This document shows positions 17,362 to 31,322 of a DNA stretch of 40,772 nucleotides, one piece after another; positions within the stretch are counted from its first letter, which is position 1; each line of letters starts with the position of its first letter. The position numbers and the translations under genes were made by a program. Below the pieces are notes generated by a model that made no database searches, was not told the DNA's origin, and saw nothing but the letters and a program-made list of their open reading frames with translations. Source of the DNA: a virus (lineage: Duplodnaviria > Heunggongvirae > Uroviricota > Caudoviricetes); IMG/VR virus record IMGVR_UViG_3300028456_000002, positions 1-40,772 of that record; one strand, written 5' to 3'.

Positions 17362-17579
17362 CAGAACCTCGCCAGCCGGTACCCGGGATGCCCCCGTCGT
17401 CGTGTAATCAGAGCCGCAAGGCGGCGCTCCCACTCCTGCCGCCCCTGCCGGATCTCAGATAAGTTTTCCATGGTCATCTGCTGACCATTAAAGGTGACGG
17501 ATTTTCCGTCCAGCACCGCCATTTCAGCTTCCGTATAACGCTGAATCATGGCTTCAATATCATTCTGGTTCATAACCAT
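17361..17579 (-). CDS. W: Head-tail connector protein W-like
   Basis: 72 aa, C-terminus ...RRRGHPGYRLARF resembles lambda W end; stop overlaps portal start. Confidence 0.6.
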   Translation of the reverse strand: MVMNQNDIEAMIQRYTEAEMAVLDGKSVTFNGQQMTMENLSEIRQGRQEWERRLAALITRRRGHPGYRLARF

Positions 17580-19674
17580 CCTCCGGAAGTCATCCAGGGG
17601 TTAACATCGTCAGTTACTGTTTTCTTCCGTTTTTGTTTTTTAACAGGCGTGGATACCGATTCCGGTGAGGGTGACGGTTCGATACTGTCCGGGACACACT
17701 CCAGCCATGTTTCCCGGCTCGCCCATTCCGGTGCATCCGGCCAGCGGATCTTTTCGTATCCATGCAGAATGACCAGAGCCTCGGCATACACCATCAGGTC
17801 AAAGGCTTCGTTGGCACCGCGACCCGGCTTACTCCATTTCCCGTCACTGCTCCGCTCTTCATACGTCAGTTCGTCGTAAAACCAGCTCCCCAGCCAGTCA
17901 GGGAAATGCACATAGCCTGGACCTGGCGAATCACGCCATAACGCGTTATTCACCCGGTCTTTCAGGGCATCCGTCTGAAGAAGCCAGAGCGGCACATCAC
18001 CTGCGGCCTGCGCCCGTCGGCCCGTTCGTCCGATGTTATCAGGGAATGTACGGGTGATCAGTTTTGCGCGCCGGATGCTGTCGCCCTTAAACAGGTAAAT
18101 ACGTTTACCAAGGCCATCACGACGGCAACGACGCCAGAATTTATAGGCATTATCAGTGACCCCGTCTTCACCGCCGGAGTCCACCGCCATTGCCATCAGT
18201 CGCATTTGTTGAGAAGGATCGGAGGCCAGCGGCCAGCTTTTATCAAAAAAACATCTGTCAGCAGGACATCCCAGTCTTCCGGATAGCTGGCCGGATCAAT
18301 TCGCTGGCTCTCCCCGTCGCTGTCACCGCGCAATGACTGCGTGATGTTGTAACGATCAATAATCCAGCGTTCGCCACGGCTGCCATAGCCCGTTACCTGA
18401 ACCACAAAACGGCGATGACGTCCCGCCTGCACATCAACTGTCGCCACTAGGAAATTAACGCCATCCGGCACACTGCGGGGAGGAACTGGCTCTGCTCGCT
18501 GCTCAAGCAGCTCACTTTTTCGTTGCTCCATGCTGGCGCGGGGAAGATAAGGTAATCCCCAGTCGGTATTGATAACCGTCTTGAGTGTTTCTTCACTTCC
18601 GGTTGTCTCGTATTCCTGTTCTGCAGTAAGCAGTTTGTAAACGAGTTGCGAGAGTGTCTGGTAAGCAGCTGCCGGACCCTCCATCCAGAATGACGCAATA
18701 CGTGAACGCCTGGGATCACCATAACGACTGCCATCCGCACTGATGGATTCACCATCCCGCAACCAGACCCCACGTCCGTTCAGCTCACGTTTTTGTTCAG
18801 GCATAATCCGTCCTGAACAGAAAGGACACTGAATATAAGCCGCCTCACTTGCCAGCACGGGATCGGCAATATCACGGAAACCAGCAACCACATCGCCGCA
18901 GGGCTGAAAATACTCACCACAGTGTGGACATGGCCAGTACCAGCGACGGCGATCACCACGGTTATAGAGCGACAGGATCCCCGTGGTTGGTGGAGCCTCA
19001 TGCGGTGAAGTCCGTCGCCATTTCACATCCTTCACATCCCTGCCGGGGGAACTCTCCACCAGCGTCATACCGCTGGACATAAATGTGGTGGTACGTTTTG
19101 AGGCAAGAGAGAAGGCATCCCCCTCGCCATCAATATCTTCCGGAAAACGGTCATAATCCGTCAGCGCGACGCATTTATAATCTGATGAGGACATGATATT
19201 GACTGACGGCCAGCCGATTTTCAGGTAGTTGCCAGCAAGGAATGTTCTGTCATAAACGTTGTTGTCATTTTTGTTCGGACTCAGGCGACTGACCACTTCC
19301 GGGCTGACGCGAAACGTTCTGGCGAGTCGTTTTTTGGAGTGTTCGCGGGCTTTTTCCTCTGTCATCTGAATGATCAGCATATCCGCAGGATCGCAAATCA
19401 CGTTGTAAATCACCCAGCCGTCAATCAGGCCGATAGTCTTGCCGGTTCGTGCCGGACCAACAAATATCACTGCGTCGTATTCACGCGAGGCCAGGCAGTT
19501 CATCGGCTCAATAACATACGGTGCCACCAGCGGATCCCACGGGACTGAGTTCCCGGCCCCCATGGGCACCCGCATATACTGAGCAACGGCATCAGCAACC
19601 CGCATTCGTCTCGGTGCGCGAAGGATATAACCTGAATCGGTTCGTGCTGCCTTTGCGGTTTCCTGATTCAGCAT
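17570..19674 (-). pseudogene. Terminase large subunit, split into two ORFs by a frameshift in a T7 run
   Basis: ORF 18196..19674 carries the N-terminal ATPase region (...WPCPHCGEYFQ... like lambda A); ORF 17570..18205 carries the C-terminal nuclease part. On the minus strand GATGTTTTTTTGATAAAAGC has 7 T; 8 T would give one continuous frame. Confidence 0.85.
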
Positions 19675-20168
19675 TACTCCTCCTGCTGTAATTCCTCCTC
19701 ATCATCCGCACCTGCTTCGGTCACCCGCAGGGCTATCTGATCGCGCAGATCATCAATAATGGACTGAACACGGCTCACAGCGGCAGGCTGCAGACCGCAG
19801 TCACGTTCCAGAATATCCGGTAATGTCTCCAGCACCTGCACGACCGCTTTTGCCCAGATGGCAAACTCCCGTCTGACATCACTGGCCGGAATGAGTTGTG
19901 CCGTTTCCTGTTCGAACTTAAGACGCTCACGTTCAGACTGATACCAGGCTTTGCGCTCATGCGCGTCCATTTCGCCTTCTGCAACCGGCGGTGGTAATGC
20001 CAGAAATGCCGACACAATATCAACCACCCGATAAAGCTTGAGGTTGCTTTCATGCCCCCCTGCAACGGGTAGATTTTGCAGCCTTGCCGCAGCAGTCTGG
20101 CGATGTACACCTGACAGTGCCGCCAGTTGACTGATATTCAGCGTCAGATTTTTTAACTCTCGATCCAT
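19674..20168 (-). CDS. Terminase small subunit
   Basis: 164 aa with N-terminal HTH-like segment (LNISQLAALSGVHRQTAAARL), acidic C-terminus; immediately upstream of the large subunit and downstream of cos. Confidence 0.75.
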   Translation of the reverse strand: MDRELKNLTLNISQLAALSGVHRQTAAARLQNLPVAGGHESNLKLYRVVDIVSAFLALPPPVAEGEMDAHERKAWYQSERERLKFEQETAQLIPASDVRREFAIWAKAVVQVLETLPDILERDCGLQPAAVSRVQSIIDDLRDQIALRVTEAGADDEEELQQEE

Positions 20169-25717: not shown

Positions 25718-26776
25718 TTATGCTTTCCACTTCAGGACACCTGAATTTCTCGCGTGCATTAAAAAACGAATCAGCAACAACAGCTGGCTGCCGTGTTTTT
25801 CTTCAAAATCTTTTACCCCGGCGTGCAGTTCGTTATGACATTTACGGCACAGCGGAATAACAAACAAATCGTCAGTCTTTGTTCCCATCCCTCCCAGTCC
25901 ATAGCCAATGATGTGATGCGGATCATCTGCCTGATTGCCACAAGTCATGCATTTCTGCGTTTTTACCCAGCGCGTGTATACGGGCATCTCTTCCCGCTGT
26001 GGTTTCTGACGCTGGAGATACTGAGTCGGAGACTCCGGATCAACGGCAATGCTGACCACCGTCTTTTCCTGTGGTGGGTTCTGTTGCTGGTGGACGTGAG
26101 GCGGTAACGCAATATTTTTTGTGCGCTGCTTCAGTATGCTGGTGGCGGTCGGTTCTCCCGGTATGATGTCGCTTTCGCGGTACACTGAGCGGATTTTTTC
26201 CGCACGTAACCCCAGAGAACGACGTAATACTACCTCCGGTAGTGCGTCCGCCACCTGATTGCAGACAGCCCACCAGGATAATTCAGCCAGCGATAATTCC
26301 CGCTCCTGCGCACCGCTTATTGCGTGACGGATGACGTCAATCATCCATGCTGTCAGGTTTTGTTGAGCAAGTTGCTCAAGTGATTCTGAGGTCTGGTCAC
26401 GCAGCTGGTTGTCGCAGTGCCAGCACAACACCATCGCGCCGGTGCCGTAACGATGTATGACGGTTTCGCTGTGGTGATAGTCACCATGAGGCCACTGGCA
26501 GGATTTAACATGACGCAGGAGCCAGTCAGACAGTGCACCAGCGCCGCCGGCAGCACGAATCACCCGTTCGTCGCTGAAAAATGGCAGTAATGATTTATCT
26601 TCCGCCAGCGGCTGGCGAACGGCAGGAACAACTCCGGACGGCAGACCACGCATGCTTTTCGGTTCCGGCTCCACCAGCACTCGAGGGTTATGAAATACCT
26701 GCATGGATTCACGGCCCGGCTTTAGCACCACCAGCCCAAGTTCCGGTACCGGAACAGGTCGAAGCAATACCCGCAC
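25718..26776 (-). CDS. ydfU: YdfU-like protein (DUF968) with C-terminal HNH-like Cys/His cluster
   Basis: 352 aa; C-terminus ...CMTCGNQADDPHHIIGYGLGG...CRKCHNELH; resembles Qin prophage YdfU from memory. Confidence 0.7.
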   Translation of the reverse strand: MRVLLRPVPVPELGLVVLKPGRESMQVFHNPRVLVEPEPKSMRGLPSGVVPAVRQPLAEDKSLLPFFSDERVIRAAGGAGALSDWLLRHVKSCQWPHGDYHHSETVIHRYGTGAMVLCWHCDNQLRDQTSESLEQLAQQNLTAWMIDVIRHAISGAQERELSLAELSWWAVCNQVADALPEVVLRRSLGLRAEKIRSVYRESDIIPGEPTATSILKQRTKNIALPPHVHQQQNPPQEKTVVSIAVDPESPTQYLQRQKPQREEMPVYTRWVKTQKCMTCGNQADDPHHIIGYGLGGMGTKTDDLFVIPLCRKCHNELHAGVKDFEEKHGSQLLLLIRFLMHARNSGVLKWKA

Positions 26777-27465: not shown

Positions 27466-27493
27466 ATTCTAATTAATCTTTATTTCTAAGCAA
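27466..27493 (-). promoter_or_regulatory. Candidate sigma70 promoter of the AT-rich 86-aa ORF
   Basis: Minus strand TTGCTT, 16 nt spacer, TAGAAT; T-tracts and the 9-bp repeat array lie immediately upstream. Confidence 0.4.
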
Positions 27494-27530
27494 CGCAAAA
27501 AACAAACCAAAAAAAAGACAAAACCACAAA

Positions 27531-27590
27531 CAATACAAACAATACAAACAATACAAACAATACAAACAATACAAACAATACAAACAATAC
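27531..27590. repeat. Tandem repeat, 9-bp unit CAATACAAA, 6 perfect copies plus a partial seventh
   Basis: Read directly: caatacaaa repeated head-to-tail from 27531 to 27584, then caatacagg; intergenic. Confidence 0.9.
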
Positions 27591-27667
27591 AGGCGCATCG
27601 ATAATTAATTAACTTATCGGGCTACAAGGTAATATAACTTCAGTTAAAATTATTAATCTCTTATTCG

Positions 27668-27693
27668 TGAAAAACAAAACCCGCCGAAGCGGG
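27668..27693 (-). terminator. Rho-independent terminator of the hok transcript
   Basis: Minus strand CCCGC-TTCG-GCGGG followed by TTTTGTTTTT. Confidence 0.6.
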
Positions 27694-27763
27694 TTAAGTG
27701 CGGGTGCTTTGAGGATGCCTGACACATCAGAGGTGGCGAGGGATTTCTCCCTCGCCTGGTCTC

Positions 27764-27919
27764 TTACTCCTCAGATTCGTAAGCTGTGAAGACAGCGACC
27801 TCCGTCTGGCCGGTTCGGATTCGTACCTCGCAGAGGTCTTTCCTCGTTACCAGTGCCGTCACTATGACGGTTAAACAGATGACGATCAGGGCGATTAACA
27901 TCGCCTTTTGCTGCTTCAT
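27764..27919 (-). CDS. hok: Hok/Gef family type I toxin (HokD-like), inside an N-terminally extended mok frame 27764..27976
   Basis: MKQQKAMLIALIVICLTVIVTALVTRKDLCEVRIRTGQTEVAVFTAYESEE, 51 aa, single TM helix, near-identical to chromosomal Hok proteins; the 70-aa in-frame upstream extension corresponds to mok. Confidence 0.85.
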   Translation of the reverse strand: MKQQKAMLIALIVICLTVIVTALVTRKDLCEVRIRTGQTEVAVFTAYESEE

Positions 27920-28199
27920 AGCCTGCTTCTCCTTGCCTTTCGGCATGTAAGAGGCTAACCTACATGTGCAAAGCATGAAATTGGCCTCAGATTAATGTTA
28001 AGCGTCTTGCCGGACGCGTAATGTTAACTGGGGCTTTTCTCTATCTGCCGTTGGTGTTCATGCCTGAGACAGATAGCCTCAAGCACCCGCAGCAATTCTA
28101 CTTAACTATCCTTTTCCCGCAAATCGTTTTTATCCCCAGCGGCAAATCGAATACACCACCAGCGCCACTGCCATCGCGATTCCTACTGTTGTGAATGCC

Positions 28200-28757
28200 T
28201 CAGGCCAGGTCATCGCCTATCAACCCGTTCCGCTCCAGATAGCCCATCGCCTTATCCGGCAATTTACAGTCCGGCTTCACTTTCTTCAGTTGACTGACCA
28301 ATTGCTTAACCAGCATGGTTAATTCGTCAGTCTGTTTGCCTGGTACTGGTGGATTGTCGGTTGTACCATGACTGGCAGTACAGTTGGCACTTCCTCCCTT
28401 CTCCTCCCGCAGCGGTTCAGGCAACGCATCCAGTGAAGCTTTCACAAACCACGCTGCCTGTACTATAACGCCATGAATCCAGCGCAAATCAGCATCGCGA
28501 TCGTTCTTTTTCATCTTTTCACCACTTAAAGCCTGGCTTATGTGGCTGCGAACCAGGTCTTCATGTAACTCCTTCGCATCCTCAATGGTGAAACCACCAG
28601 GCAGGCGAGCCGGAGTTACCGGAGAGTTGCCAGCCTTACGCATGGCCATTTCCACGATTTCAACCATATCTCCTGGTGGAATTTTACAAAGTTGCCCAAT
28701 ACATTTCTGCTGCCTTGCATATTCGAGAATGTGTTCCAGTTTGGTTCGATTAATCAT
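28200..28757 (-). CDS. Hypothetical protein, 185 aa
   Basis: ORF translationally coupled to the upstream gene (shared boundary at 28757); no recognised motif. Confidence 0.5.
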   Translation of the reverse strand: MINRTKLEHILEYARQQKCIGQLCKIPPGDMVEIVEMAMRKAGNSPVTPARLPGGFTIEDAKELHEDLVRSHISQALSGEKMKKNDRDADLRWIHGVIVQAAWFVKASLDALPEPLREEKGGSANCTASHGTTDNPPVPGKQTDELTMLVKQLVSQLKKVKPDCKLPDKAMGYLERNGLIGDDLA

Positions 28758-29122
28758 TATTTATCTCCCTTAAGCATGGCGGCGCGGCAGGCGTTCCAGC
28801 CATCAGCATATGTTTCAGTTACACCGTCGAGATGGCAGGTAAGCAAATCCATTTCATCAGGCACTACCAGCGCTGGCGGGACAGCATAAAGCTCATGCAT
28901 TCCATCAGGCAGCGAGTGACCTACATACTCACCGAACCCGTCAACACACATGCACCCATCCTCAATAATGCATGACGCCACTGGCTCTGCTTCCAGCGAT
29001 GCCAGTGCAATCCGTGCCAGTTCTTCCGCTTCTTCTGCTGGCAGTACAACGTTGCTACCCGGTCCGTATGTTTCGCGCCACTGCTTGATTGTCAGCAGTC
29101 GCTCTTTGGTAATAGTGGTCAT
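28757..29122 (-). CDS. Hypothetical protein, 121 aa
   Basis: ORF with start overlapping the HNH gene stop; Cys-rich central segment (CIIEDGCMCVDGFGEY). Confidence 0.5.
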   Translation of the reverse strand: MTTITKERLLTIKQWRETYGPGSNVVLPAEEAEELARIALASLEAEPVASCIIEDGCMCVDGFGEYVGHSLPDGMHELYAVPPALVVPDEMDLLTCHLDGVTETYADGWNACRAAMLKGDK

Positions 29123-29484
29123 GCCGTAGCCCCTTCTTGATATTTTTCAAACCAGAACACAACCGGGTCAGATTTCATTTCAACCAACCCCATACGAACC
29201 AGCGCTTTGCCTTTCCCGGACGCAAGGAATTCACGACGACCATCACTGATAATTCGCCGATAATCTTCCAGGCTACTGCAATGCTTGTGCAGATTGCATG
29301 GGTGGCATGCCGGAACCATGTTGGATATATCGTCACGTTCCTGGTGAAGCATATTTCCAGCAAAACGAATGACCGGTTTTACATGGTCTACATGCCACTT
29401 TTCGCCAAGTTCGCAACCACAATAAGCACAGCGACCGCCGAACTTCATGCGCAGCTCTGCACGTTGTTTTTTCGTCAGTGCCAT
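29119..29484 (-). CDS. HNH endonuclease
   Basis: Start taken at MALTKKQRAELRMKFGGRCAYCGCEL...WHVDHVKPV...VPACHPCNLHK; classic HNH Cys/His motifs. Track ORF extends to 29574. Confidence 0.8.
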   Translation of the reverse strand: MALTKKQRAELRMKFGGRCAYCGCELGEKWHVDHVKPVIRFAGNMLHQERDDISNMVPACHPCNLHKHCSSLEDYRRIISDGRREFLASGKGKALVRMGLVEMKSDPVVFWFEKYQEGATA

Positions 29485-29485
29485 T

Positions 29486-29725
29486 TCAGTTTTCCTTATA
29501 TGGATTAATTTTATTGTGCAGTGTATTGAACGACGCCCATACCACGTCGTTATACAATTCAATAACTGGCTCAATTATTTTCCCGATTGCCCAGACAAAA
29601 ATTAGCGGGGATATCGGTGTCATCAACACGATAAACAGAATGAGAAACAAAAATTCTGTCGCTCTACTTTTTCGCGGATATTCTTTTCTGAATAATGTAG
29701 GCACATCACTCTCCTTTGTTGCCAA
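29486..29725 (-). CDS. Small membrane protein, 79 aa
   Basis: Hydrophobic segments FLFLILFIVLMTPISPLIFVWAIGKII. Confidence 0.45.
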   Translation of the reverse strand: MATKESDVPTLFRKEYPRKSRATEFLFLILFIVLMTPISPLIFVWAIGKIIEPVIELYNDVVWASFNTLHNKINPYKEN

Positions 29726-30065
29726 TGTTTACAGCCTGGCAAGCCTCTTTGAGCACCCAGTCAACAGCGTCTTTCCATGCTCCGGTTTCAGCTGGCGGAT
29801 TCTCACACTTTACCTGTTCATAGAAGCGCACTGCTTTAATCAATCCTTCTGGTGTCAGTGGCACAGGCGGGGCAGTGAATAACGCCTGAATTTCATAGCT
29901 CGGCCTGTCGTTGCAATCCTCTTTTGTCGGTACATATTTCCAGTCACCAACCCACGGCTCCCCCTGAGAGTCCGTAACGCCTTTTTTCACGTAGCGATAT
30001 CGCCATGCAACTGGTTTTGCCTGCCCTGCCGTTTCATGTCCTTCCTGATAATTAATCTCGCTCAT
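29706..30065 (-). CDS. Hypothetical protein, 119 aa
   Basis: ORF MSEINYQEGHETAGQAKPVAWRYRYVKK...; start overlaps the stop of a small upstream ORF. Confidence 0.5.
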   Translation of the reverse strand: MSEINYQEGHETAGQAKPVAWRYRYVKKGVTDSQGEPWVGDWKYVPTKEDCNDRPSYEIQALFTAPPVPLTPEGLIKAVRFYEQVKCENPPAETGAWKDAVDWVLKEACQAVNIGNKGE

Positions 30066-30238
30066 TCATCGCCCCACTCATCACAATATGCTTCGACCGG
30101 AGTTTTTCCTGCTTCGTAGTCATCACGCCATGCTTCAGCATCAGCGGCACTTCCACCGCGTAACTCTGCATAGTCCATTAACAGTTCATGCCATTCTTCA
30201 AAACTGACGTTGTATTTAGTTGAACCAAAATCAGCCAT
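30062..30238 (-). CDS. Small acidic protein, 58 aa (below the ORF-track length cutoff)
   Basis: My own translation of the minus strand: MADFGSTKYNVSFEEWHELLMDYAELRGGSAADAEAWRDDYEAGKTPVEAYCDEWGDE; stop overlaps the next start (ATGA). Confidence 0.4.
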   Translation of the reverse strand: MADFGSTKYNVSFEEWHELLMDYAELRGGSAADAEAWRDDYEAGKTPVEAYCDEWGDE

Positions 30239-30413
30239 TTTGTTCTTCCTCTTCGTCTTTTATTTCGTGATATGAGTAATTGCAGCGGTTAAAGAAAATT
30301 TCTTTTGCTTCGTCATGAATTTCATCAGGTGTTGCGTCATCGTCCACTTCGAATACATCCTCAAAATCTCCACCAGCTATTCCAGTTTCAATAATTATTT
30401 TGAACTTTCGCAT
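30231..30413 (-). CDS. Small acidic protein, 60 aa
   Basis: ORF MRKFKIIIETGIAGGDFEDVFEVDDD... Confidence 0.4.
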   Translation of the reverse strand: MRKFKIIIETGIAGGDFEDVFEVDDDATPDEIHDEAKEIFFNRCNYSYHEIKDEEEEQNG

Positions 30414-30508: not shown

Positions 30509-30907
30509 TTATTCCGTTCTGGATTTTGTCGCCCTGCGTATCCGCGCTTTCGCGTTACGCTCAATCTGAATTAACTTTTCTATATTTTTCCGCCTTTCCT
30601 GTTCCTCCTGGCGCAATAGCCTTACATCATCTGCCAGTCTGGTTTCTCTTTTCGCCACTGAGAGCATCCAGTCAAACGGCTCCACAACTGCACCGCAGAT
30701 TTTACAGCGGACCTGACGCTCTTTTTCGTCAACCCGGACAGAAGCGTGATGACAGTATGGTCTTTCCGATGGCTCATAAAGAAAATTAACCTGATTACGT
30801 GGGTCATCCTCTTTTACCGGAAATAAAACAATATTACTTAACTCATCTTCTGGATTTATTTCCACGTCACTCTCCTTTGATGCGAATGCCAGCGACGCGT
30901 GGCACAT
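30509..30907 (-). CDS. Hypothetical Cys-rich (zinc-ribbon-like) protein
   Basis: ORF 30509..30946; contains CHH and CKICG motifs and a basic coiled C-terminus; start uncertain because the 5' end overlaps the upstream gene. Confidence 0.45.
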   Translation of the reverse strand: MCHASLAFASKESDVEINPEDELSNIVLFPVKEDDPRNQVNFLYEPSERPYCHHASVRVDEKERQVRCKICGAVVEPFDWMLSVAKRETRLADDVRLLRQEEQERRKNIEKLIQIERNAKARIRRATKSRTE

Positions 30908-31322
30908 TAACTTCCACAATGCGCACAGTTGGTTTGTACATCTCAATTGCTGTCAGCCAGTCAGCGCCAGTCATGCGCTTTTCTGCATCACCATTAGTCC
31001 ACTTAACCGGCACACCAATAGCCTTCATCGCGATTTCTATTTCCCCGGCAATGGCGCTTTTTCCGCAACCAGTAAAACCAGATACAACGACAAGAACTTC
31101 GCCTTTGGCTGGTTTTATTTCCCGTGCTTCCAGCTCTGCAATGCGCTTTTTGGCTGCTTCCCGTTCATCCAGTAGTGCCAGCACAACCTGCGGTGTGACC
31201 TTCATACGAAACGCAAGCAATTTTTGCGGTGTTGCCACGACTTTTATTGCTTCTGCTGCCTCACGCAGTGCCTGATAGTCAATCTTGCTCACTGGTTGCC
31301 TCCTGGCAAAGCTGGGCGACAA
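30867..31322 (-). CDS. Small P-loop protein, 151 aa
   Basis: Contains GFTGCGKS, a Walker A-like motif. Confidence 0.5.

Follow-up and report, generated by a model that had tools for sequence, protein, structure and literature searches.

The window, by which we mean the whole 40,772-nt stretch of DNA analysed here (IMG/VR record IMGVR_UViG_3300028456_000002), is a Qin/Rac-type lambdoid prophage of E. coli. In annotated near-relatives, the genes are arranged in the order int, xis, exo, dicB, repressor, DicC, YdaT, O and replication genes, followed by variable genes, hokD, DUF968, RusA, Q, lysis genes, the Nu1-like and gpA terminase genes and portal, and the Pfam matches of the window proteins agree with this order. 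Three overlapping genes, coding for an HNH endonuclease and two neighbours termed p2 and p3 here, are located between the replication genes and hok/DUF968/RusA/Q, the place of the lambda nin region (Table 1). The three ORFs listed by the first-pass annotation are present, on the minus strand, which had been left unstated. Their adjacency to hok is borne out by the Hok ORF, an Rfam sok match and a terminator-like hairpin. The block showed no sign of foreign base composition, its GC content being approximately 0.49-0.53 throughout, like that of its flanks.

Table 1. Features of the three-gene block and its surroundings in the window.
Feature	Coordinates	Strand	Description	Basis
HNH gene	29484..29119	-	121 aa, stand-alone beta-beta-alpha-Me endonuclease	Pfam HNH, PHROG 2118
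p2 gene	29122..28757	-	121 aa	PHROGs 60, 5117, 660, 3323
p3 gene	28757..28200	-	185 aa	PHROGs 924, 24004, 660
DUF4014 gene	29486..29725	-	small membrane protein; probable start GTG 29704	Pfam DUF4014, E 8e-25
Three small genes	30413..30231, 30238..30062, 30065..29706	-	same tight chain	ORFs
hok/sok locus	27764..28088	-	type I toxin-antitoxin locus directly downstream of p3	Rfam sok and Hok ORF
Hok ORF	27976..27764	-		ORF listing; HokD annotated at the same position in relatives
sok RNA	27914..28088	-		Rfam RF01794, 112 bits vs gathering score 59
Hairpin after hok	27695..27678	-	intrinsic-terminator-like; the nearest one downstream of the gene chain	
Terminase	17570..20168		lambda Nu1/gpA-like	Pfam
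Ead_Ea22 protein gene	30867..31322		near the three genes in the window	Pfam

Direct reading of the sequence confirmed the overlapping stop and start codons, which form ATGA between the HNH and p2 genes (29122..29119) and TAATG between the p2 and p3 genes (28759..28755). The longest HNH ORF extends from a TTG start (29574..29119), while translation from the ATG at 29484 yields the 121-aa form common to the listed full-length homologues; this ATG is preceded by a Shine-Dalgarno sequence, AAGGAAAA, 5-12 nt upstream. The start codons of p2 and p3 have Shine-Dalgarno sequences of their own, AAGGGG at 29135..29130 inside the 3′ end of the HNH gene and AAGGGAGA at 28771..28764 inside the 3′ end of the p2 gene. 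The placement of these sites within the last codons of the preceding gene argues for co-transcription. No promoter- or terminator-like site was found inside the gene chain on the same strand. As the genes are co-oriented and overlap without such internal sites, it is very probable that a single polycistronic early message serves for the translation of HNH, p2 and p3, in agreement with the earlier proposal that they are made together. Translational coupling would probably be partial, by analogy with the lambda nin region.

The overlaps are not special to these three genes. From 30413 to 28200 (minus strand, 5′ to 3′), the spacers between successive genes are -8, -4, -20, +1, -4 and -1 nt, the one before the DUF4014 gene becoming +1 instead of -20 if the GTG start used by PGAP is taken, and those farther down the chain, from 27056 to 24666, are +1, 0 and -10 nt. 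Tight packing spans at least seven genes here. The genes of the lambda nin region (ninA to ninI, between P and Q) show the same packing, overlapping by 4 nt at NinB/C, C/D, E/F, G/H and I/Q. Because the packing continues beyond the three genes and recurs in the lambda nin genes, the 5′ boundary of the proposed cassette is arbitrary. The two regions occupy the same place in the PR operon, from the replication genes to a Q-type antiterminator, and share many small genes with 1-4-nt stop/start overlaps, gene-by-gene mosaicism and a recombination nuclease (NinG/Rap in lambda, RusA in the window). The window stretch, however, contains none of lambda's nin genes, and carries hok/sok, DUF968, DUF4014, the small HNH gene and MTTIT/DUF551-type proteins instead.

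The assignment of the first gene product as an HNH endonuclease was upheld by a Pfam match to PF01844 (31.3 bits vs a cut-off of 21.4, residues 19-68) and a match to PHROG 2118, 'HNH endonuclease' (E 1.4e-56). Ten residues, C19, C22, H31, D33, H34, N55, C60, C63, N64 and K67, were invariant among 26 family members down to 52% identity, and these include the catalytic His/Asn and the zinc-binding Cys residues. The dN/dS ratio was approximately 0.07 at dS up to 0.57. On these grounds, the gene codes for an intact zinc-finger beta-beta-alpha-Me nuclease and is under strong purifying selection. The best NCBIfam match was the HNH domain of IscB, and the sequence search of PDB generated weak motif-level matches (4h9d at E 0.024, PtuB chains at approximately 0.1). 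Pfam recognised no extra DNA-binding domain (NUMOD, AP2 or HTH) in the 121 aa.

A full-length copy of the HNH gene was present in 385 of the 5,426 complete E. coli genomes, and a 3′-end remnant fused to another gene in approximately 318. Identity by host genus was 98% in E. coli, 91% in Salmonella, 84% in Citrobacter and 73-75% in Yersinia. The gene was seen in two operon contexts, the exo-xis region of Stx phages and the nin-like region here. Across approximately 77 species, no family dominated the immediate neighbours of HNH family members (the commonest, DUF6012, accounted for 5/74), and NinG, RusA, NinB, NinE, Q and Ead_Ea22 recurred among them. The order in Klebsiella is HNH (60% identical), DUF551, then NinE, NinG and Q, and in Yersinia it is NinB, HNH, then YbcO, RusA and Q. 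A literature search for 'HNH endonuclease' together with 'nin region' found nothing.

One of the nearest known counterparts is Rap (NinG) of lambda, a structure-specific endonuclease built on an HNH-type core, which lies in the nin region as the window HNH lies in the nin-like region. The two share the arrangement CxxC ... H ... N ... CxxC-N-x2-K (hhalign probability 42%, E 2.6e-4, 46 columns), and a few HNH family members carry a precomputed Pfam NinG label. The window HNH, however, scored 16.8 bits against Pfam NinG PF05766, below the cut-off of 25.4, and aligned to profile positions 93-147 of 193 only; NinG, at 204 aa, has additional N- and C-terminal parts. In relatives, HNH is found together with NinG or RusA, for instance with NinG in the Klebsiella prophage, and it is therefore not simply their substitute. 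Gp16 of the S. aureus phage PhiNM1, in which an IscB-like HNH is joined to a NinB-like domain, is an early RecA-dependent nickase, and both Gp16 and P1 Ref are early-expressed phage HNH nucleases with no packaging role (PMC12817073). The IscB-like HNH of Gp16 is matched by the best NCBIfam hit of the window HNH, and the 73%-identical Yersinia relative directly follows NinB with a 4-nt overlap, which recalls the NinB-like domain of Gp16. Unlike Gp16, the window HNH has no NinB-like domain and no NinB gene beside it, and its likeness to Gp16 and Ref extends to position and domain type only.

For p2 and p3, profile and structure searches gave no fold or function, in keeping with the earlier statement that neither has an assignable one. 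Neither matched Pfam at E up to 1, NCBIfam or PADLOC, and the profile search of their alignments against PDB returned nothing at E up to 1. All PHROGs matched by the two proteins are annotated 'unknown function'. The AF2 model of p2 (pLDDT 68, pTM 0.43) had no Foldseek match in BFVD and PDB at E 0.001 or better, and that of p3 (pLDDT 49.5) was too poor for a fold search. The description of p2 as Cys-rich holds in part: it contains five Cys residues (51, 57, 59, 96 and 112), which is modest, with no CxxC pair, and only C112 is invariant among homologues. Some relatives of p3 bear the names 'dTDP-6-deoxy-L-hexose 3-O-methyltransferase', 'alpha/beta hydrolase' and 'dienelactone hydrolase'; these names are backed by no Pfam domain and were rejected as legacy misannotation.

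Comparison with other prophages revealed what kind of proteins these are. Four parts make up p2: a helical head starting with MTTIT, a linker (ALASLEAEPVA), a small beta module and a tail (GWNACRAAML). Throughout its length it shows 58-77% identity to proteins of approximately 200 aa with a C-terminal DUF551. p3 has a head (1-43), a conserved core (approximately 50-110) and, beyond a disordered linker, a C-terminal helix module (141-181); its residues 1-110 showed 97% identity to the N-termini of DUF551 proteins in other prophages, and single ORFs elsewhere combine its core and tail, as does a 328-aa gene in locus L022. Pfam found neither DUF551 (PF04448) nor Ead_Ea22 (PF13935) in p2 or p3 themselves. 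One and the same 24-mer codes for the VTPDGWIS linker in 89 of 90 occurrences, although the sequences around it vary, with 17 different contexts upstream and 28 downstream. As judged from these sequence relationships, p2 and p3 are members of a large module-shuffled family of lambdoid accessory proteins, in which fusion to DUF551 is frequent. That Ea22 is mosaic and DUF551 portable has been published (PMC10834534). Lambda Ea22, its Stx-phage variants and DUF551 proteins are likewise mosaic and multi-module, with a helical N-terminal part and exchangeable C-terminal domains (PMC10834534), and homologues of p2 and p3 are annotated as DUF551 or Eaa proteins, with DUF551 at the C-terminus. The p2 and p3 genes lie in the PR operon, whereas Ea22 is encoded in the exo-xis region. 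Genes of the p2 and p3 types were adjacent in 67 of 80 p3 loci (best 80 matches), and given this frequent adjacency the two proteins might cooperate.

The first-pass annotation described the three genes as a cassette and named co-occurrence as a check. Locus sets were taken as the best 80 IMG/VR matches per query, in which many near-duplicates occur, so that the counts from these sets are not numbers of independent events. The best 80 HNH matches were 93-99% identical to the window HNH, and nucleotide homology to the window in these loci covered HNH in 80/80, p2 in 7-26/80 and the p3 core in 0-5/80. Within the same set, the genes downstream of HNH fell into 26 clusters of 114-364 aa (78 loci); none of 75 loci had exact p2 at this position, and two of 75 had the p3 core. 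In the reverse direction, HNH lay upstream of p2 relatives in one of 70 loci and of p3 relatives in six of 74 (best 80 matches each). None of the 5,426 complete E. coli genomes covered at least 80% of 28200-29484. HNH thus assorts independently of p2 and p3, and the claim of a dedicated three-gene cassette was not sustained; travel independent of both neighbours indicates ordinary phage mosaicism rather than a dedicated nuclease module.

What is constant downstream of HNH is the type of gene and its junction. Among the best 80 matches, the downstream gene belonged to the MTTIT class in 76 of 78 loci, and it started by the same ATGA overlap in 76 of 78. Given this constancy and the Klebsiella relative followed by a DUF551 protein, a loose functional link of HNH to the MTTIT/DUF551 protein class, not to p2 and p3 specifically, is conceivable. 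Upstream, the DUF4014 gene was the commonest neighbour of HNH but not an obligate one, being directly upstream in 56 of 79 loci and missing in 23 (best 80 matches), as well as in most other species. Conversely, 15 of the 17 DUF4014-bearing loci from the p2 and p3 sets (best 80 matches each) had no HNH. A literature search on 'DUF4014' found nothing. In two empty sites (L089 and L101), the DUF4014 stop codon is directly followed by an MTTIT-type gene without HNH, the L101-type junction being DUF4014 stop/ATGACCACTATTACC. Alternative occupants of the HNH slot were present in six other loci, with an 87-aa gene seen after the DUF4014 stop; in L253, whose prophage backbone is near-identical, the slot is taken by two genes, of 87 and 55 aa, and the three small upstream genes (the 30413..29706 chain) are annotated there likewise.

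Taken together, the three genes in all likelihood occupy adjacent slots of a nin-like segment in the PR early operon of a Qin/Rac-type lambdoid prophage and do not constitute a functional cassette. The operon runs from replication genes through small accessory genes to hok/sok, DUF968, RusA and a Q-like antiterminator with stop-to-start packing, and short conserved junctions evidently act as joints for swapping whole genes between phages. These junctions consist of gene ends, such as those coding for ..KGE, KEN or KGDK plus stop, and gene starts, such as those coding for MTTIT.. or MALTKK... HNH behaves as an autonomous gene-sized module that occurs in the nin-like or exo-xis early regions of many prophages and changes neighbours. 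The p2/p3 family, which is related to the DUF551 and Ea22-like proteins, comprises helical, hyper-mosaic, multi-module accessory proteins, put together by recombination at linkers whose nucleotide sequence is conserved. Red/Rad52-type recombinases joining diverged sequences have been described as a mechanism for phage mosaicism (PMC2327257 and PMC3945230).

Within this arrangement of swappable slots, p2 and p3 would probably be non-enzymatic adaptors acting on host or lysis-lysogeny functions, independently of HNH. The suggestion of a nuclease-based defence, anti-defence or recombination module fares unevenly: the module is not supported, a defence role is improbable, and a recombination or DNA-processing role is plausible for HNH alone. 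The likeliest role, which we put forward tentatively, is that HNH acts by itself as an accessory DNA-nicking or branch-cutting enzyme that helps the phage to recombine or replicate, or harms the DNA of rivals or of the host, and would thus resemble lambda Rap/NinG, P1 Ref or PhiNM1 Gp16. We infer this biochemical role from motifs, position and analogies only.

Of the other explanations, the one that survives best, though unlikely, is that HNH is a free-standing homing endonuclease, a selfish gene with p2 and p3 as bystanders. Its targets would be alleles without HNH, cleaved where the stop of the preceding gene meets the MTTIT start, and repair would then copy the gene in; adjacent markers would be co-converted, adding to nearby mosaicism. 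Consistent with this, HNH shows a precise gene-sized presence or absence at a fixed slot, with empty sites that join DUF4014 directly to the MTTIT gene, and its 3′ junction is nearly invariant while the flanks vary. Its occurrence in both exo-xis and nin-like contexts, the lack of a conserved partner gene and the 3′-end remnants, which suggest cycles of gain and loss, point the same way, and putative HNH homing endonucleases have been noted earlier in lambdoid early operons (PMC2629481). However, other genes examined in the region share the presence/absence pattern at gene boundaries, and the pattern is therefore not diagnostic of homing. The 121-aa protein also has none of the recognisable accessory DNA-binding domains searched for (see above), and the strong purifying selection is long-term. 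Its divergence roughly tracks the host genus, so that it looks like a stably useful phage gene rather than a sweeping parasite.

It is improbable that HNH forms a genuine nuclease module with p2/p3 or with the upstream DUF4014 protein for defence, anti-defence or superinfection exclusion. The co-transcribed, overlapping genes, the frequent position of the DUF4014 membrane protein directly upstream of HNH, the nearly constant MTTIT or DUF551-associated class downstream and a DUF4014-HNH fusion in one Shigella record (P0242) would fit such a module, as would the location beside hok/sok, in a prophage region that bears accessory and toxin-antitoxin genes in relatives. But p2 and p3 specifically do not co-occur with HNH, and DUF4014 and HNH are each frequently found without the other, as counted above. 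PADLOC gave partial, motif-level PtuB matches for HNH only (best, 35 bits over 70 of 227 positions) and none for p2, p3 or DUF4014, and NCBIfam TIGR02646 scored 25 bits vs a cut-off of 52.15. There is no PtuA-type ATPase or retron partner, and DUF4014 and p2 carry no ATPase domain. Membership of a known defence system was rejected, as only the generic HNH motif was matched in the NCBIfam and PADLOC searches.

Still less probable is that HNH is a selfish or competitive nuclease that recognises the short conserved junction or linker sequences of lambdoid accessory regions, cutting HNH-less rivals, spreading itself and seeding the extreme module shuffling of the gene directly downstream; if so, the nuclease would drive phage mosaicism rather than ride along with it.

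The last candidate is a terminase packaging cofactor displaced from its usual position. HK97 gp74 is described as a terminase-associated packaging HNH by Kala et al. (2014, PMC4000778). Both gp74 (119 aa) and the window HNH are small, at around 120 aa, and encoded by cos-type lambdoid phages, but gp74 is encoded beside cos and the terminase genes and the window HNH in the early operon, approximately 9.5 kb away from the terminase, a distance that takes in the Q, methylase and lysis genes. Its place in the early region instead of beside the terminase had been remarked by the first-pass annotation. The terminase types differ, that of the window being gpA-type with ATPase and GpA_nuclease domains and a Nu1-like small subunit, and a lambda gpA-type terminase needs no HNH partner. 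With no similarity to HK97 gp74 (BLASTP E 4.6, hhalign probability 0.4%) and no terminase family among the Pfam matches listed for 151 immediate neighbours in approximately 77 species, a packaging role was rejected as the least credible reading of all.

These results remove a false lead, since overlapping stop and start codons are the default layout of lambdoid early operons and do not mark a module, and HNH genes away from the terminase are common in lambdoid early regions. The MTTIT/DUF551-type genes show very clearly how modules are shuffled within natural genes at nucleotide-conserved linkers. The family of approximately 120-aa HNH proteins occurs in many Proteobacteria in addition to the E. 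coli genomes counted above, and, being widespread, strongly conserved and uncharacterised, can reasonably be put forward as a possible new accessory nuclease of recombination or competition.

The three coding sequences that the first-pass annotation had delimited beside hok, encoding an HNH endonuclease and two neighbours, p2 and p3, are correctly delimited and real. The HNH/p2 junction reads ATGA and the p2/p3 junction TAATG in the DNA, and the p2 and p3 starts each have a Shine-Dalgarno-like sequence that lies within the final codons of the gene before. The sok match and the Hok ORF were also found. The predicted HNH product scored 31.3 bits against Pfam PF01844 (cut-off, 21.4) and matched PHROG 2118 (E 1.4e-56), making its HNH assignment solid.

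Features of the three-gene block, its hok/sok flank and two conserved linkers in window coordinates
Feature	Coordinates	Strand	Description
HNH	29484..29119	minus	ORF, 121 aa counted from ATG
p2	29122..28757	minus	ORF, 121 aa
p3	28757..28200	minus	ORF, 185 aa
sok	27914..28088		Rfam match, 112 bits; directly downstream of the block
Hok ORF	27976..27764		downstream of p3
terminator-like hairpin	27695..27678		after hok
LASLEAEP	28964..28987	minus	conserved linker
GWNACRAAML	28769..28798	minus	conserved linker

By Megablast against complete E. coli genomes and from how its best relatives are annotated, the window is a lambdoid prophage of the Qin/Rac type. The leftward-operon genes (dicB, exonuclease, xis, and int) run outward from the repressor on the plus strand, with the integrase at the window end. 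The minus strand carries, in order, DicC, YdaT, O, replication genes, variable small genes, hokD, DUF968, and RusA, and after RusA a Q-like antiterminator, a methylase, tRNAs, the genes for lysis, a Nu1-like small terminase, a gpA-type terminase, and the portal. Pfam matches of window proteins (DUF1627, Ead_Ea22, DUF4014, DUF968, DUF1441, GpA_ATPase, and GpA_nuclease) agreed with this order. From the gene order in relatives and these scans, HNH, p2 and p3 occupy the part of the PR operon equivalent to the lambda nin region (ninA to ninI, between P and Q). The C-terminus of the DUF968 protein (25718..26776, minus strand, beside RusA) contains an HNHc_6/HNH-like domain (Pfam E 1.4e-7), so this nin-like region has, in addition to RusA, a gene for a second HNH-type nuclease.

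The genes of the chain between 30413 and 28200 are separated by spacers of −8, −4, −20 (or +1), +1, −4, and −1 nt, and the spacers further downstream, from 27056 to 24666, are +1, 0, and −10 nt; lambda nin genes are likewise tightly packed, with 4-nt overlaps at five junctions. No promoter- or terminator-like sites were found on the minus strand within the gene chain. This uninterrupted chain is thus very probably co-transcribed, and its spacing makes some translational coupling plausible. Such tight overlap is the standard layout of the region and does not mark a module. Between the hok terminator and the gene that follows, a spacer of low GC content (0.33) contains a perfect 9-nt tandem repeat, ACAAACAAT (7.3 copies, 27526..27591), which yields a spurious ‘LYCLYCLYC’ ORF (27473..27598).

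The proposal that the three genes form a dedicated cassette did not survive the co-occurrence analysis. Eighty IMG/VR loci carrying HNH at 93–99% identity were fetched; like the other locus sets compared here, they include near-duplicates, so that the counts do not represent independent events. Scored at each position, homology to the window covered the HNH segment in 80/80 loci, the upstream DUF4014 segment in about 58, the p2 segment in 7–26, and the p3 core in 0–5. Among the 75 loci with at least 1 kb downstream of HNH, none carried the window p2 (80% identity, 80% coverage) and two carried the p3 core. Conversely, HNH lay upstream of p2 relatives in 1/70 loci and of p3 relatives in 6/74. 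HNH alone was present at full length in 385 of the 5,426 complete E. coli genomes, while the 1,285-bp block was found at 80% coverage in none of them. Despite the near-duplicates, the direction of these counts is unambiguously against a three-gene cassette. In 76/78 loci the gene following HNH overlapped it by the same ATGA and had a product starting MTT(I/F/N)..; these following genes, 114 to 364 aa long, fell into 26 clusters at 85% identity and coverage. The ‘cassette’ is an accidental juxtaposition in a textbook mosaic nin-like region.

The HNH family (ca. 120–140 aa) occurs throughout Enterobacterales and, at 38–50% identity, in numerous further Proteobacteria as well as outside that group. 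Two CxxC pairs, H31, D33, H34, N55, N64, and K67 are invariant, and a dN/dS of about 0.07 (dS up to 0.57) among E. coli phage copies clearly points to a functional protein. Its best NCBIfam match is the IscB HNH domain. The HNH core can be aligned with the core of lambda Rap/NinG (hhalign probability 42%, E 2.6e-4). The Pfam NinG score of the window protein is under threshold, and relatives can encode NinG or RusA alongside HNH. In Yersinia, a relative lies directly after NinB with a 4-nt overlap; PhiNM1 Gp16, an early NinB-like/IscB-like HNH fusion, is a RecA-dependent nickase aiding phage propagation (PMC12817073). We tentatively favour a stand-alone accessory nuclease whose substrates may be intermediates of recombination or replication, or else the DNA of rivals or of the host. 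The main rival, a free-standing homing endonuclease, would fit the presence/absence pattern at a fixed slot, but is rather unlikely given the small size of HNH, the strong long-term purifying selection on it, and a divergence that tracks the host. A defence or exclusion module composed of HNH with DUF4014 or an MTTIT-class neighbour (a shuffled family of genes starting MTTIT.., often fused to DUF551) is improbable; this reading and a packaging role are weakly supported or contradicted. In a few non-enteric genomes among loci L254–L333, HNH-family genes have conjugation genes as immediate neighbours (for TraN, a T4SS coupling protein, and a MobA/VirD2 relaxase), so the family is not confined to prophages.

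A misplaced packaging factor was rejected as a very remote prospect, the gpA-type terminase having its own nuclease domain and lying ca. 9.5 kb away, in line with the earlier remark that HNH is not in the terminase-associated position. HK97 gp74 showed no similarity to the window HNH (BLASTP E 4.6) or to a 26-member family profile (hhalign probability 0.4%), and relatives in Klebsiella (60% identity), Yersinia (73%), and Salmonella (49%) again lie in an early operon. When ORFs immediately up- and downstream of family members were scanned against Pfam, using one genome per species from ca. 77 species, no terminase families were among the matches listed; NinG, RusA, NinB, NinE, Q antiterminator, Ead_Ea22, DUF551, and DUF4014 recurred at low counts, and even the commonest, DUF6012, reached merely 5/74. 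The large terminase gene itself (17570..19674, minus strand) is broken into overlapping ORFs (19674..18196 and 18205..17570) by an indel near 18244, a 2-nt poly-A difference from the intact 700-aa gene of strain cS51a, to which it is otherwise 98.3% identical; this reflects either a packaging-defective prophage or a homopolymer assembly error.

As the first-pass annotation had stated, neither neighbour could be given a function: profile searches with p2 and p3 and fold searches with the p2 model assigned them to no enzymatic domain, no known fold, and no defence family. In p2, an MTTIT helical head is followed by an ALASLEAEPVA linker, a small beta module, and a GWNACRAAML tail; p3 comprises a head, a core that is well conserved (residues about 50–110), a linker that is disordered, and a helical module at the C-terminus. 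Hundreds to thousands of prophage proteins contain these modules; many of them measure ca. 200 aa, end in a DUF551 domain, and bear the names DUF551, Eaa, or ead/Ea22-like. In 67/80 p3 loci the p3-type gene immediately follows a p2-type gene, and in some phages the p3 core and tail are fused with p2-like parts in a single ORF. The closest characterised analogues are Ea22 of lambda and its Stx-phage variants, which are mosaic, oligomeric, and pro-lysogenic, with exchangeable C-terminal domains including DUF551 (PMC10834534). p2 and p3 are probably accessory proteins that work as adaptors and lack enzymatic activity.

The DUF4014 stop context, AAGGAAAACTGA, is followed by one base and the ATG of the next gene, which is, depending on the phage, HNH, an 87-aa gene (MATLTKKER..), or an MTTIT-type gene directly; in a prophage with an almost identical backbone, an 87-aa gene and a 55-aa gene occupy the HNH slot. 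Genes upstream of HNH end in ..KGE, ..KGD, or ..KEN, the codons of which encode the Shine-Dalgarno sequence of the next gene. Unrelated genes before HNH or its neighbours also end in ..KGDK, their endings spelling AAGGAG-like sequences (window 29706, 29486, and 28757; upstream genes in L006–L083). Protein C-termini appear to be constrained by the downstream ribosome-binding site and the shared junction. The short conserved sequences at gene boundaries thus preserve expression and can serve as recombination joints. A Shigella sonnei protein of 194 aa (P0242) combines Pfam DUF4014 and HNH as a fusion of the adjacent genes; as the two frames differ in the window, the fusion needs a frameshift and may be a sequencing error or real.

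About 318 of the 5,426 E. coli genomes match HNH only partly, and in sampled records the match is the last 48–51 nt at 98–100% identity (window 29119..29169). In one locus, L253 (2501–2668, minus strand), a 55-aa chimeric ORF starts with an MTTIT head, continues through a LASLEAEPV linker, and ends in the HNH C-terminal VFWFEKYQEGATA; an ORF at identical coordinates is present in L252. The chimera looks like a scar of HNH loss by recombination, with the joint at the ‘(E/D)PV’ microhomology. The last residues of p3 (28200..28225, minus strand) read ..NGLIGDDLA against the family consensus ..NGLISVEDILR, and this divergence, located exactly where the mosaic changes over to the hok-flanking block, suggests a recombination joint within the 3′ end of the gene.

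Within MTTIT-type genes, VTPDGWIS was encoded by the same 24-mer in 89/90 occurrences, with 17 upstream and 28 downstream flanking sequences, and LASLEAEP and GWNACRAAML behaved similarly; conservation was at the nucleotide level, synonymous sites included (loci L004–L242). One 24-mer across so many contexts suggests that MTTIT/DUF551-type linkers act as intragenic recombination joints. Such exchange fits published work on lambdoid mosaicism, in which a ‘typically mosaic nin region’ was described (PMC2629481) and recombination between diverged sequences by Red/Rad52-type recombinases was proposed (PMC2327257, PMC3945230). Every component already has entries in public databases, where the HNH endonuclease is named as such, the others are hypothetical proteins, and relatives carry the DUF551 name. 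What remains worthwhile is a small HNH family that is widespread, conserved and uncharacterised, and an unusually clean case of linker-mediated module shuffling beside it.
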